Of a stretch of 64,000 nucleotides of DNA, positions 1 through 4,727 are shown one piece after another. Source of the stretch: Bacilli bacterium (GTDB taxonomy: Bacteria > Bacillota_I > Bacilli_A > ML615J-28 > CAG-313); assembly GCA_045652765.1 (NCBI GenBank), contig JAZOLG010000041.1, positions 7,310 through 71,309 on the forward strand. The letters run 5' to 3'. The notes under the pieces were generated by a model, which saw only the letters and a list, made by a program, of their open reading frames with translations, was not told the origin of the DNA and ran no database searches. Both the position numbers and the translations under genes were made by a program. Position 1 is the first letter of the stretch, and the number at the start of each line of letters is the position of its first letter.

Positions 1-1557
1 GTATTAGAAGTACCAAAAGATCAATCTAATGGCGATTATGCTACAAATATTGCCATGAGACTAGCAAGAATTGCTAGAAAAGCACCTGTGATGATTGCAA
101 AAGATATTGTTGAGAAACTAGATAAAAAAGATCTTCATCTTGAAAAAATCGAAGTTGCTGGTGCAGGATTTATTAATTTTACAATTGATGTTGATTATTT
201 ACTAGAAGTAATTGCTAAAGTTAATAATGATCCAACATATGGTTGTAATAATATTGGTGAAGGAAAAACAATTGACTTAGAATTCGTATCTGCTAATCCG
301 ACTGGATATTTACATGTTGGTCATGGACGAGGCGCGGCATACGGAGATAGTTTAGCTAATTTATTAAGTAAAAGTGGTTATAAAGTTACACGTGAACATT
401 ATGTAAATGACGCTGGTAATCAAATTACTAATATGGCTCTAAGTGTTTATGAAAGATACAAAGAACTATTTGGATTATCAATTGAAATGAAAGATGATTA
501 TTATCATGGTAAAGAAATCATCACTATTGCAGAAATGTTAAAATGCGAATATCAAGATAAATTTTTAAATGAATTTGATCTTAATTTCTTTAAAGAATAT
601 GGTACAAAAGTTTTACTAGCTAATTTGAAGAAAGACTTAGAAAGATTTAACGTTAATTTTGATGTTTGGTTTAGTGAAAAAAGCTTATATGCATCTAATT
701 CTGTTGAAAAAGTATTGAAAACATTGAATGAATTAGGTTATTTATATGAAAGTGAAGATGCTAAATGGTTAAAAACATCTCTTCTAGGTGATGAAAAAGA
801 TCGTGTAGTTGTTAAGAGTGATGGAAGTTATACTTATTTATTACCGGATATTGCATATCATGCTAATAAGCTATCACGTGGTTTTGACCATTTGATTAAT
901 GTTTTAGGCGCAGACCATCATGGTTATGTTAACAGATTAAAAGCTGCTGTTACAATGCTTGGTGGTAATGCCAATTTGATTGACGTTGAACTTTTACAAA
1001 TGGTAAGAGTAATGGAAGATGGTCAAGAAGTAAAAATGAGTAAAAGAAGCGGTAAAGCTATTACACTGATTGATTTAATAGATGAAGTTGGAAGTGATGC
1101 TTTGAGATATTTCTACGTTTCTAAAGCGTTGAACACTCATATGGATTTAGATTTAGATGTTATGCGTAAAAAATCTAATGAAAATCCTGTTTTCTATGCT
1201 CAATATGCGTATGCACGTGTGGCTAGTGTATTTAGAAAGTTTAATGAAGCAGGTAACGTTTTTGAAGCATCTACTCAATTTAGTAATATTGATAAATCAA
1301 AAGTTAAGAATATTTGTTTAACTCTTTTAAAATATCCTGTAGTAATTGAAGAAGCTGCAAGTAAACATTTAGTACATAAAGTATGTCACTATATTGATGA
1401 ACTTGCATATCAACTACATAGTTTTTATAATGAAGAAAAAATTATTACTGATAATATAAGTGAAACAACAGAAAAATTAACTATCTTAAAAGCACTACAA
1501 ACTGTACTTAAAGATGCCTTAAATACATTAGGTATCAATACATATGAACAAATGTAA
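1..1557 (+). CDS. argS: Arginine--tRNA ligase (5'-truncated by window edge)
   Basis: Frame open from base 1 (VLEVPKDQSNGDYATNIAM...); HIGH-type motif HVGHGRG, KMSKR motif. Confidence 0.97.
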   Translation, partial: VLEVPKDQSNGDYATNIAMRLARIARKAPVMIAKDIVEKLDKKDLHLEKIEVAGAGFINFTIDVDYLLEVIAKVNNDPTYGCNNIGEGKTIDLEFVSANPTGYLHVGHGRGAAYGDSLANLLSKSGYKVTREHYVNDAGNQITNMALSVYERYKELFGLSIEMKDDYYHGKEIITIAEMLKCEYQDKFLNEFDLNFFKEYGTKVLLANLKKDLERFNVNFDVWFSEKSLYASNSVEKVLKTLNELGYLYESEDAKWLKTSLLGDEKDRVVVKSDGSYTYLLPDIAYHANKLSRGFDHLINVLGADHHGYVNRLKAAVTMLGGNANLIDVELLQMVRVMEDGQEVKMSKRSGKAITLIDLIDEVGSDALRYFYVSKALNTHMDLDLDVMRKKSNENPVFYAQYAYARVASVFRKFNEAGNVFEASTQFSNIDKSKVKNICLTLLKYPVVIEEAASKHLVHKVCHYIDELAYQLHSFYNEEKIITDNISETTEKLTILKALQTVLKDALNTLGINTYEQM

Positions 1558-1697
1558 TTTTTTCGATGAATGAGCTGACAACTCAGGAGAAAAACGTACC
1601 GAAAACGTTAAAATGGATTCTAAGAGCAAATAAACTTGAAATAAGGTGGTACCGCGGAATAAAATTCGTCCTTATAGTTTTTTTGCTCGTTTTTTTT
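1558..1697 (+). ncRNA. T-box riboswitch (atypical, ultrashort Stem I; probable Asp GAC specifier)
   Basis: T-box AAGG-TGGTACC-GCG at 1643-1656 with antiterminator partner CGTCCTT at 1667-1673; upstream of two aminoacyl-tRNA synthetase genes. Confidence 0.85.
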
Positions 1698-1708
1698 AGG
1701 AGGAAATA

Positions 1709-3001
1709 ATGAAAATTAGTAAATTAAAAGGAACTTTAGATTATTTTGGTGACTCTATAAAAAGATTTCATGTAGTATGCAATGCTTCAAGAAAAATATG
1801 TGAGGCATTTGGATATGAAGAAGTTATCACACCCGTTATTGAGTCAATTGATGTATTTGTAAGATCAGCTGGTGAGAATTCAGATATCGTTGGAAAAGAA
1901 ATGTATACTTTCAACGATCGAGGAAACAGAATGATTGCTTTAAAACCAGAATCTACTGCTAGTGTTATGAGAATGGTTGTAGAAAATAAAATTTATGCAA
2001 ATCCTGGTGTAAAAAAGTATTATTATTTGTCACCTAATTTCCGTTATGAAAGACCACAAGCAGGAAGATACCGTCAATTCTATCAATTTGGGGTTGAAAC
2101 TTTATGTGAAGAAAGTCCTTATCTTGATGCAGAAGTTATCTTAGTTGCTTATAGAATATTAGAAGAATTAAAAATTAATAATGCTAAGGTCTATTTAAAT
2201 ACTCTTGGAAGCGACGAAACTAGAAAAAATTATACAAAAGCTTTAAAAGAGTATTTTGAACCATTCGTTTCAGATCTATGCGATGATTGTAAACGTCGTT
2301 TTGAAAAGAATCCACTTCGTATGCTTGATTGTAAGGTTGATGCTCATAGTGATATTATGAAGAACGCACCAAAAATTAGTGATTATTTAAGTGAAGAAGA
2401 TGATTCTTATTTTAAAGAATTATGCAAAACACTTGAATCATTAAATGTCCCTTATGTTATTAATAGCCGTTTAGTACGTGGTCTAGACTATTATACTAAT
2501 GATATTTTTGAAATAATTTATGAAAAAGATGGTAGTCCATATAATGGCTTAGCTTTAATTGCCGGTGGAAGATATAATAATTTAGGACAAGAATTTGATG
2601 GTCCTCAAATTCCAAGTATTGGTTTTGGAATGGGTGTAGAAAGAATGATCGGCGTAATTGAAGAAAATGGATATAGTGATAATTCTAATTTAAAAACAAA
2701 AGTTGCGGTTATTACAATGAGTAATGCATGTAAAATTGAAGGAATTAGATTGGCTGATTATCTAAGAAGAAATAATATGGAAGTATTTATTGACTATAAA
2801 AATAACAATTTAAAACCACAATTTAAACTTTGTGATCGTGAAAATGTTGAATTTATTTTAATAATGGGTGATGATGAAGTTGCAAATGGGACAATTAGGG
2901 TAAAAAATGTCAAAGAAAATACACAAGAAGATATAAAAATCGAAGATTTAAATAAATATTTTAATTTAAAAGAGGAAGAAATTTATGCGTACAAACACTA
3001 A
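1709..3001 (+). CDS. hisS: Histidine--tRNA ligase
   Basis: FRYERPQAGRYRQFYQFGVE, LVRGLDYY, GGRY motifs; SD AGGAGG at 1698-1703. Confidence 0.97.
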   Translation: MKISKLKGTLDYFGDSIKRFHVVCNASRKICEAFGYEEVITPVIESIDVFVRSAGENSDIVGKEMYTFNDRGNRMIALKPESTASVMRMVVENKIYANPGVKKYYYLSPNFRYERPQAGRYRQFYQFGVETLCEESPYLDAEVILVAYRILEELKINNAKVYLNTLGSDETRKNYTKALKEYFEPFVSDLCDDCKRRFEKNPLRMLDCKVDAHSDIMKNAPKISDYLSEEDDSYFKELCKTLESLNVPYVINSRLVRGLDYYTNDIFEIIYEKDGSPYNGLALIAGGRYNNLGQEFDGPQIPSIGFGMGVERMIGVIEENGYSDNSNLKTKVAVITMSNACKIEGIRLADYLRRNNMEVFIDYKNNNLKPQFKLCDRENVEFILIMGDDEVANGTIRVKNVKENTQEDIKIEDLNKYFNLKEEEIYAYKH

Positions 3002-4727
3002 TGGTGAATTAAGATTATCAGATGTAAATAAAATTGTTACTTTAACAGGTTGGGTTAGTAAAAAACGTGACTTAGGTGGATTAGTATTTGTTGATTTACG
3101 TGACCGTTATGGTATTACACAATTAATAGTAGAACCTGAAAATAAATGTTATGATTTAGCTGTTAGCTTAAAAATGGAATATGTAATTAAAGTGACAGGA
3201 AAAGTTGTTGAAAGAAGTAGTAAAAATCCTAACATGTCAACTGGTGATATAGAAGTTTTGGTTGATGAATTAACTATTTTAAATGAAGCTGAACTTCCAC
3301 CACTACTTGTTCAAGATCAAACAGATGCGCTTGAAGAAACAAGAATGCGTTATCGTTATTTAGATTTAAGAAGACCAACAATGCAAAATAATTTAGTGTT
3401 ACGTCATAAAACTTGTATGGCTATTCGTAATTATTTTGATGAACTTAATTTTGTTGAAGTTGAAACACCAATCCTAGGTAAATCTACTCCAGAAGGTGCT
3501 CGTGACTTCTTAGTGCCTTCTCGTGTGCATCAAGGTTCGTTTTATGCATTACCACAGTCTCCACAATTATATAAACAATTATTAATGGTTTCAGGTATGG
3601 ACCGCTACTTCCAAATTGTTAAATGCTTCCGTGATGAAGATTTAAGAGCGGATAGACAACTTGAATTTACACAAGTTGACCTTGAAATGAGTTTTGTTGA
3701 TGAGATAGATGTTCAAACAGTTACTGAAGGATGTTTAAAACGCGTTTGGAAAGAAGTTTTAGGACAAGATATTGTTACACCTTTCCCTCGCATGGCATAT
3801 GATGATGCTATGAATAATTATGGTAGTGATAAACCTGATACTCGTTTTGAAATGTTATTACAAAATATTACAGAATGGGCTAGTAAATTAGATTTTTCTA
3901 TTTTCAAAGATAATATTGCTGCAGGTGGTGTTGTAAAAGTTGTTGTTGCTAAAGGAGCTGCATCAAAATATTCTCGTAAAGAAATTGATCGTTTAACGTT
4001 AATTGCAAAAAAATACCATGCCAAGGGTCTTGCATGGGTTAAATATGAAGATGCAATTAGCGGTTCAATTGCTAAATTTATTACAGAAGAATTACAAAAT
4101 GAACTTGTTTCAACTTTAAATCTTGAAAAAGGAGACTTAGTGTTAATTGTATCTGATACATTAGAAAATGCCAATACTAGTTTAGGTGCATTACGTTTAA
4201 CTCTTGGTCATGAATTAGATTTAATTGATAATGATAAATTTAATTTCTTATGGGTTGTTGATTGGCCATTATTTGAATATAGCGAAGAAGATGGAAGATA
4301 TGTTGCTGCACATCATCCATTTACTTCTCCTAAAGATGGACATGAGGAACTAATGTTAGAACATCCAGAGCTAACAAAAGCTAAAGCATATGACGTCGTT
4401 CTTAATGGTTATGAACTTGGTGGTGGAAGTATTCGTATTTTCAATCAAGAAACACAATCAAAAATGTTTAAAGCTATTGGTTTAACTGATGAAGAGGTTA
4501 AAGTTAAATTCTCATATTTTGTTGATGCGCTTAGATATGGTACACCTCCACATGGTGGTTTAGCTTTAGGTCTTGATAGACTTGTAATGTTAATTACAAA
4601 AAATAATAATTTACGCGAAGTTATTGCTTTCCCTAAAGCTGCTAGTGCAAAATGCTTAATGAGTAACTGCCCAACTCCAGTTGCTGATAGTCAATTAGAT
4701 GAATTAAAAATAAAGGTAAATGAATAA
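2985..4727 (+). CDS. aspS: Aspartate--tRNA ligase
   Basis: YALPQSPQLYKQLLM, FRDEDLRADRQ, PPHGG motifs; hisS-aspS synteny. Confidence 0.97.
   Translation: MRTNTNGELRLSDVNKIVTLTGWVSKKRDLGGLVFVDLRDRYGITQLIVEPENKCYDLAVSLKMEYVIKVTGKVVERSSKNPNMSTGDIEVLVDELTILNEAELPPLLVQDQTDALEETRMRYRYLDLRRPTMQNNLVLRHKTCMAIRNYFDELNFVEVETPILGKSTPEGARDFLVPSRVHQGSFYALPQSPQLYKQLLMVSGMDRYFQIVKCFRDEDLRADRQLEFTQVDLEMSFVDEIDVQTVTEGCLKRVWKEVLGQDIVTPFPRMAYDDAMNNYGSDKPDTRFEMLLQNITEWASKLDFSIFKDNIAAGGVVKVVVAKGAASKYSRKEIDRLTLIAKKYHAKGLAWVKYEDAISGSIAKFITEELQNELVSTLNLEKGDLVLIVSDTLENANTSLGALRLTLGHELDLIDNDKFNFLWVVDWPLFEYSEEDGRYVAAHHPFTSPKDGHEELMLEHPELTKAKAYDVVLNGYELGGGSIRIFNQETQSKMFKAIGLTDEEVKVKFSYFVDALRYGTPPHGGLALGLDRLVMLITKNNNLREVIAFPKAASAKCLMSNCPTPVADSQLDELKIKVNE

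Follow-up and report, generated by a model that had tools for sequence, protein, structure and literature searches.

The window analysed here is a 64,000-nucleotide (nt) stretch of a Bacilli bacterium genome (GenBank assembly GCA_045652765.1, contig JAZOLG010000041.1, positions 7,310 to 71,309 of the forward strand). On its plus strand, ahead of the genes hisS and aspS, it carries a leader of ~135-140 nt (1562-1697) with the hallmarks of a T-box reduced to a minimal architecture. The evidence, all of it computational, indicates that this leader is probably a functional transcription-attenuating T-box that senses uncharged tRNA-Asp(GUC) and controls hisS-aspS. Judged by its discriminator, by the logic of its specifier and by its kink-turn (K-turn), the element reads as one of the T-box kind. 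It departs from the classical T-box in its Stem I platform, its Stem II and the topology of its terminator, together with its Rfam score. A preliminary description of this DNA had raised the prospect of a new minimal class; the rewired terminator, the long Stem I kept in a sister family and the minimal Tyr and Gly T-boxes of another family go beyond it.

In a permissive scan, the Rfam T-box model RF00230 aligned end to end over 1557-1676 with a score of 55.9 bits (E 1e-11), which falls below the gathering cut-off of 93 bits; no Rfam family was found at gathering score in the leader region. The alignment replaced 74 Stem I model positions with 5 nt and deleted Stem II, and it fitted the K-turn, the Stem IIA hairpin with its F-box, Stem III and the T-box core of the window well. 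By this alignment, the long Stem I with its specifier internal loop (S-turn, AGUA), AG bulge and distal loop platform is not present in the window leader. Stem II with its S-turn and five-purine string is likewise absent, and 1-4 nt separate the K-turn C-stem from Stem IIA in all 44 leaders of the family described below. The preliminary description had found neither an AG-bulge/apical T-loop module nor an S-turn Stem II, and the model thus agrees with it on both.

The minimal Stem I (1562-1591), delimited by the Rfam alignment and by covariation over 44 sequences, begins with the K-turn, in which the C-stem pairs UUC (1562-1564) with GAA (1589-1591), the bulge is GAU (1565-1567) and the tandem sheared G·A pairs are G1568-A1588 and A1569-G1587. 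Above it, a stem of 4 base pairs (bp; 1571-1574 with 1582-1585) carries the 7-nt apical loop CUGACAA (C1575-A1581), which holds the Asp codon GAC (1577-1579) followed on its 3' side by a purine, A1580. This specifier, GAC-A at 1577-1580, matches the amino acid of the downstream aspS. The Stem IIA hairpin, AACGU[ACCGAAA]ACGUU-A (1593-1610; stem 1593-1597 with 1605-1609), is placed by the Rfam alignment and includes the F-box ACGUUA (1605-1610). With a candidate IIB pseudoknot partner, C1599-C1600(-G1601) with (U1614-)G1615-G1616, it makes up a IIA/B element spanning 1593-1616.

The 5' part of the discriminator (1622-1640) follows the motif 5'-RRRxG-Stem III-AA-3' defined in PMC7583486, with AAGAG at 1622-1626, Stem III formed by C1627-A1629 with U1636-G1638, and AA at 1639-1640. 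A longer Stem III pairing over 1618-1640, put forward in the preliminary description, is not conserved in relatives and gives way to this class-conserved one. The antiterminator (1641-1675) consists of helix A1 (1641-1646 with 1670-1675), the T-box bulge UGGUACC (1647-1653), whose UGGU is predicted to pair with the tRNA 3' GCCA, and helix A2 (1654-1658 with 1665-1669) with its basal G1654-U1669 pair. The core AAGG-UGGUACC-GCG...CGUCCUU lies at 1643-1673, with the conserved T-box sequence at 1643-1656. On a check of the sequence, the K-turn, 4-bp stem, GAC-A loop, IIA hairpin and core all lie where they had been drawn originally. The window genome (1.45 Mb, 65 contigs) yielded eight T-box matches; the other seven measure 193-234 nt and six of these exceed the Rfam cut-off, so shortness is not a general trait of this organism's T-boxes.

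A BLAST search with the leader returned full-length matches in other genera within the window's family. A pattern scan of 185,579 species genomes, one for each GTDB species, gave ~26 true members, all from uncultured gut or rumen Bacilli metagenome-assembled genomes (MAGs) labelled Bacilli, Mollicutes, Acholeplasmatales, Anaeroplasma or 'Staphylococcus sp. CAG:324'. Further matches to the pattern in Chloroflexi, Proteobacteria, Actinobacteria, Gemmatimonadota, Zixibacteria and Lachnospiraceae look like chance and, inspected by eye, are without T-box architecture; a match in Bacillus sp. AFS073361 (L071) proved to be a canonical tyrS T-box whose Stem II had fitted the pattern. One further record, L053 (JAMPDF010000001.1), a 557-kb scaffold labelled as a Prevotella sp. 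MAG, has a leader and aspS start near-identical to those of the Bacilli MAGs L042 and L058, which suggests that it is mislabelled or misbinned.

From 26 sequences we built a covariance model, R1, and ran it on the order to which the window genome belongs. Of the 49 genomes in the window's family, a group of uncultured Acholeplasmatales-like gut Bacilli, 44 gave a single match at 69-135 bits, with 13 genera represented. Scores were sharply bimodal: among 57 genomes of the sister family, no copy fell in the 69-135-bit range. The second-tier matches (at most 63 bits) that were checked in the order, and most of those in the class, are ordinary T-boxes of 175-239 nt.

Covariation was assessed on a model-fitted alignment, A4, of the 44 distinct sequences (MAFFT had misaligned IIA and Stem III). 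In A4, 97.7% of cells are paired and both partners have changed in 16 of 24 pairs, counts that overstate independence, given that the alignment leans to the model and the sequences are related; the pattern is nonetheless unambiguous. None of 500 shuffles reached the observed value, and slid registers did not come close either. Recurrence of such an architecture in 44 distinct genomes, covariation included, far exceeds what chance would yield. Covariation extends to each of the four pairs in the short Stem I helix, where the first is UA in 12 sequences, CG in 10, GC in 10, GU in 7 and AU in 4, and to each of the three in Stem III. Helices A1 and A2 are paired in 99.6-100% of cells, IIA in 97.5% and the K-turn C-stem in 93%. 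At the sequence level, the K-turn retains its 5' GA in 39 of 44 leaders and its 3' NGAGAA in 36. The loop reads CUGACAA in 37, and GAC-A is found in all 44. Within the discriminator, RRRxG is kept in 43 of 44 leaders, and the AA after Stem III, the A2 G·U pair and the bulge UGGNA[C/U]C in every one. In most members, the IIA loop can pair with the stretch that follows the F-box (e.g., UUUUGC/GCAAAA, GUUAUU/AAUAAC and UCAAA/UUUGA), and a duplex test of IIB gave a mean of -3.1 kcal/mol for cognate versus -1.2 kcal/mol for non-cognate partners (Wilcoxon p 6e-6).

Two departures from the consensus were seen within the family. In eight leaders (A4 rows L087, L093, L101, L104, L156-L158 and L160), the bulge is UGGUAUC, not UGGUACC, which alters the normally conserved ACC part. 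A divergent member, L169 (G010:C30:17535-17675), has another 5' domain, CUUACU...GGUGACAC...GUAAG, with no obvious K-turn.

Codon, bulge and gene context all point to Asp as the amino acid sensed. The bulge is UGGU in 35 leaders and UGGC in nine. The tRNA-Asp(GUC) genes carry G73-CCA, both in the three copies of the window genome and in 29 of 29 relatives sampled (30 genomes in all), and tRNA-His has C73. G73 of tRNA-Asp can pair with the U or C of the bulge and C73 of tRNA-His with neither; we therefore take the leader to be an Asp T-box. The gene downstream of the 44 leaders is hisS, generally with aspS, in most genera and aspS alone in one genus. Since hisS is the first regulated gene in the window, a leader that senses tRNA-His and not tRNA-Asp might be imagined. 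We find this scarcely credible, as the loop holds GAC and never CAC in any of the 44 members, C73 would be left unpaired by the bulge, one genus places the leader before aspS alone, and the long hisS T-boxes of the sister family read GAC too.

Minimum free energy (MFE) folds predict a terminator over 1624-1697 that is built in an unaccustomed way. The strand A1676-C1688 (AGUUUUUUUGCUC), after which come G1689 and eight U (1690-1697), pairs with G1624-U1636 (GAGCAAAUAAACU), a segment that takes in the final purines of RRRxG together with the 5' side and the loop of Stem III. This helix encloses the A1/bulge/A2 hairpin and leaves it folded. No downstream complement of the antiterminator 3' strand was found in the window, and no helix uses that strand. 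By comparison, four other T-boxes of the window genome whose downstream strand was read (L001, L003, L006 and L007) have classical terminators, in which the antiterminator 3' strand has a downstream complement.

In MFE folds, the rewired topology, with the strand before the U run pairing with the purine string and Stem III region, recurred in ~40 of the 44 relatives. The register of the helix varies between genera, and its pairing was for that reason judged by duplex tests and not by column-wise covariation. Cognate strands gave a mean of -9.8 kcal/mol versus -5.7 kcal/mol for non-cognate partners, which were the divergent upstream regions of other members (Wilcoxon p 1e-8, kinship ignored). 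Moreover, the helix differs in sequence between genera yet stays complementary, as in GAGCA/UGCUC, GGGUA/UACCC, GAGGGUAGA/UCUUUCCUC and GUGAGGG/CCUCAC. One divergent member of the family, L168 (G013:C7:23612-23755), has a local hairpin terminator overlapping A1. A 175-nt Asp T-box before hisS, L204 (G270:C3:15695-15869), has much more Stem I and an Rfam score of 81.5 bits, yet its terminator, GAGCACA/UGUGCUU with a U run behind it, invades Stem III in the same way. Rewiring of the terminator does not, therefore, strictly require a minimal Stem I.

The presence of a terminator bears on the mode of regulation. A short Stem I with the specifier in its apical loop is otherwise known from translational T-boxes (PMC7583486), and in the window UUCGUCCU (1665-1672) could pair in part with AGGAGGAA (1698-1705), such that tRNA binding could free the Shine-Dalgarno (SD) sequence from a sequestrator helix, as in actinobacterial ileS. 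We regard a translational switch as very unlikely: a helix and 5-9 U lie ahead of the SD in nearly all 44 leaders, the complementarity to the SD is lost in relatives such as L010 and L024, and the 3' strand of A1 is paired in both predicted states.

Control by transcription attenuation, which we prefer, would operate as follows. The codon would be displayed in the 7-nt apical loop C-U-GAC-A-A, on the 4-bp stem above the K-turn, with IIA/B following directly after the K-turn. The charge of the tRNA would be sensed by the canonical discriminator, RRRxG-Stem III-AA, through pairing of the UGGU bulge with G73-C-C-A and through the A2 G·U pair, which in known T-boxes is the steric sensor of aminoacylation (PMC7583486). 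For termination, the segment that leads into the U run (1676-1688) would capture 1624-1636, and with it the purine string and the 5' side of Stem III; the A1/A2 hairpin would be intact in both states. Uncharged tRNA would antiterminate by holding Stem III and the purine string in the discriminator fold, thereby blocking the terminator. Both of these elements are integral parts of the pocket in which the tRNA 3' end sits (PMC7583486). In classical T-boxes, the tRNA protects the 3' strand of the antiterminator; in the minimal leader, the contest would instead be over Stem III and the purine string. What the sequences show is the anatomy of the leader, its conservation and covariation, the match to the tRNA and the setting among genes; tRNA binding, display of the codon as in an anticodon loop and this Stem III competition are inferred from them. 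The rewired terminator suggests that the discriminator can act on RNA polymerase by another route as well, through competition for Stem III and the purine string.

At the locus, the leader adjoins the stop codon TAA (1555-1557) of argS, whose 3' part occupies 1-1557 and is open at the window start. Downstream, the SD sequence AGGAGG (1698-1703) and the hisS start ATG (1709-1711) occupy 1698-1711. The open reading frame (ORF) list places hisS at 1709-3001 and aspS at 2985-4727, with a 17-nt overlap, as a predicted regulated operon (1709-4727); the name aspS derives from gene position and from the call made in the preliminary description. In ~38 of the 44 leaders, sigma70-like promoters (e.g., TTGAAA-17-TATAAT) end 13-30 nt upstream of the model start, and the transcript therefore has no room for a long Stem I. 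Together with the global Rfam alignment, in which Stem I is deleted, these promoters rule out a long Stem I hidden in the 3' end of argS; the canonical Stem I overlapping argS whose discovery would have told against the preliminary description is not there.

In the window copy, no recognisable promoter was found between argS and the leader. Transcription of the window's hisS-aspS would thus have to come from read-through of argS, and the T-box would be an intercistronic attenuator. When window positions 1540-1570 were compared with L081 and L010, the same-genus relative L081 (G003:C8) was seen to carry, between its argS and its T-box, an additional ~55 nt that include TTGATT-17-TATAAT. Elsewhere in the window, the sole Rfam family above threshold is the ribosomal protein L21 leader RF00559 (50.2 bits, 63473-63550, minus strand).

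The same economy of design is found beyond the window's family. Run on 399 genomes of the class, R1 detected four more short T-boxes, in another family with genomes of 0.8-1.3 Mb. A second model, R2, whose RNAalifold structure was poor and which served as a search tool only, brought out more of them in 201 genomes of that family. Among 23 inspected loci, 20, including three of the four R1 finds, measure 113-149 nt and score 49-66 bits, all below the Rfam cut-off. The minimal Tyr loci (L202, L203, L210 and L222-L249 in family f8, e.g., G432:C2:41303-41439) account for at least 20 T-boxes, with a loop Y-U-UAC-R-A, no Stem II, a promoter directly upstream and usually tyrS downstream. A minimal Gly T-box, L209 (G125:C1:49008-49132, minus strand), is 107 nt long and precedes a GlyRS gene. 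Its K-turn and 4-bp stem carry the loop UUGGCAA; Stem II and IIA/B are both absent, and its terminator, CUCUAAAGGAAAU/GUUUCUUUUAGAG, overlaps Stem III. In most Tyr and Gly leaders, the Stem III 3' strand and AA pair downstream, extending A1, with covariation such as GUUAUAAAU/GUUUAUAAC. These Tyr and Gly T-boxes are our own observations and not a described family.

The Asp leader and these Tyr and Gly T-boxes share the K-turn, a 3-4-bp stem, the 7-nt loop Y-U-codon-R-A, the lack of Stem II and platform, a score below the cut-off and a promoter adjoining upstream, and in both the terminator usually competes with Stem III. They differ in specifier (UAC and GGC in place of GAC), in the genes served (tyrS and GlyRS) and in the 5' strand of the terminator, which in the Tyr and Gly forms is the 3' half of Stem III plus AA. 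In sequence, the loops for all three amino acids are laid out like an anticodon loop, with a pyrimidine at position 32, U33, a triplet, a purine at position 37 and A38. This resemblance suggests that the codon may be presented by a U-turn, in a loop-loop contact with the tRNA anticodon. A G/C-rich codon has been proposed to make Stem II dispensable in glycine T-boxes (PMC7583486); given the existence of UAC members, a strong codon-anticodon helix is not the general explanation.

Several points weigh against a working leader. To the relatedness of the aligned sequences and the missing promoter are added a window Stem III of only three A-U-rich bp, a IIB pairing of just 2-3 bp (two pairs, CC/GG, at -1.8 kcal/mol in the duplex fold, with CCG/UGG possible by eye if a G·U pair is added) and a terminator loop of ~40 nt, which is unusual. 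In published work, a truncated Stem I by itself barely binds tRNA, and the ileS T-box of Mycobacterium tuberculosis loses binding once its Stem II is shortened (PMC7583486, PMC11297988). Function without platform and Stem II is contrary to expectation, and a further helper may be needed.

Two alternatives draw on these points. One holds that the leader is a decaying T-box remnant, in which Stem I and Stem II were deleted and which now acts as a constitutive partial terminator or as a spacer. The Rfam score below the gathering threshold, the weak Stem III and IIB, and the loss from the window copy of the promoter region present in its same-genus relative would all fit decay. A remnant would not, however, be expected to hold codon, bulge and tRNA discriminator in match, and the element persists in 13 genera, where the short stem, Stem III, A1 and the terminator have all undergone compensatory changes and where GAC-A, the UGGN bulge, RRRxG, AA and the A2 G·U pair are invariant or nearly so. 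We therefore judge decay to be most improbable. The preliminary description had set a new minimal class against decay, and the retention in 44 of 49 genomes, the covariation of the short stem at four of four pairs, the universal GAC-A and the intact discriminator favor the new class.

The second alternative accepts a functional RNA and denies that it is self-sufficient: a protein or second RNA, for example an L7Ae-family K-turn-binding protein or another tRNA-binding factor, would replace the contacts of Stem II and the elbow. It is favored by the barely detectable tRNA affinity of a short Stem I without Stem II (PMC7583486, PMC11297988), by the strong conservation of the K-turn together with the existence of K-turn-binding proteins in Bacilli (PMC7583486), and by the minimal Tyr T-boxes, whose A/U-rich UAC takes away a strong codon-anticodon helix as a general answer. 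Conversely, no candidate factor came to light, though no search aimed at one was made, nothing in the leader is conserved beyond known T-box motifs, and the discriminator and anticodon pairings amount to two-point binding, which may suffice. We consider dependence on such a partner rather unlikely, though whether the RNA acts unaided is the main uncertainty in our account of the leader as a tRNA-Asp-sensing attenuator.

The sister family, of the same order, offers a view of how the minimal leader could have arisen. With the product of the window's hisS as query, HisS was matched in 54 of its 57 genomes. Its hisS Asp T-boxes (L108, L118, L120, L124 and L125) measure 190-213 nt, and three of the five exceed the Rfam cut-off. 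Their Stem I is complete (AGUA, AGAGA box, distal loop), GAC-A lies in an internal loop, and IIA/B is present; a 4-bp vestige (e.g., UCCCAUGGGA) stands in the place of Stem II, and the terminator is canonical (e.g., GUCCUUAAG/CUUAAGGAC plus U run). They are the best R1 matches outside the window's family and have in common with the minimal leader the gene hisS, GAC-A, IIA/B and the discriminator. In contrast to their long Stem I, Stem II vestige and canonical terminator, the minimal leader is without platform and without vestige and has a rewired terminator. Because the sister family keeps a long Stem I and a classical terminator, we take the minimal form to be derived. The sister-family leaders look like an intermediate in which the S-turn is gone and IIA/B and the canonical terminator are kept. 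Read from these sequences, the order of loss would be a working Stem II first, in the lineage, and then the distal Stem I and the vestige, in the window's family.

Three T-box designs have been described: a long Stem I with Stem II; the glycine T-boxes, with a long Stem I and without Stem II or IIA/B; and the actinobacterial translational T-boxes, with a short Stem I and Stem II (PMC7583486, PMC11297988, PMC7778990). The literature that we searched, which two key comparative papers lie outside, describes neither a short Stem I without Stem II nor a Stem III-based terminator. We are inclined, on balance and with reserve, to see in the leaders described here a fourth archetype: a terminator-type T-box that decodes with no more than a K-turn and a 7-nt apical loop resembling an anticodon loop (Y-U-codon-R-A), has no Stem II and makes no elbow contact, serves whole small-genome Bacilli lineages for Asp in one family and for Tyr and Gly in another, and usually carries a terminator competing for the purine string and Stem III, not for the antiterminator 3' strand. 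If this archetype works unaided, tRNA could be sensed co-transcriptionally through two contacts, a 3-bp codon-anticodon helix and 4 bp of NCCA pairing, even where the codon is the A/U-rich UAC.

Such a class matters to structural models, which hold that a T-box needs either a Stem I platform (elbow) or a Stem II S-turn (clamp); a natural, conserved and covarying class without both makes the minimal RNA that senses tRNA identity and charge a testable object. As these leaders score below the Rfam threshold, T-box regulons are under-annotated in Acholeplasmatales-like and other reduced gut Bacilli. In addition, a switch of ~135 nt is an attractive small scaffold for engineered tRNA-responsive switches.

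Among known systems, the actinobacterial ileS T-boxes (Mycobacterium tuberculosis, M. smegmatis and Nocardia farcinica) resemble the minimal leader in their K-turn, short Stem I, specifier in the apical loop and purine 3' of the codon; the likeness to this ultrashort Stem I that the preliminary description had pointed out is borne out. Both also lack the distal T-loop platform and elbow contact, possess IIA/B and share the same discriminator (PMC7583486). In actinobacterial ileS, however, the Stem II S-turn clamps the codon-anticodon helix and is essential for binding (PMC11297988), whereas the minimal leader is without Stem II. The ileS T-boxes act translationally, through an SD sequestrator, and read the codon AUC; the minimal leader has a terminator and U run and reads GAC. 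The glyQS T-boxes of Bacillus and Oceanobacillus are similar to the minimal leader in having no Stem II, in regulating through transcription termination and in relying on codon-anticodon and NCCA pairing. They have a long Stem I whose interdigitated T-loop platform rests on the tRNA elbow, no IIA/B, and a terminator formed from the antiterminator 3' strand (PMC7583486, PMC11297988). Set beside them, the minimal leader dispenses with the platform, retains IIA/B and has its terminator rewired.

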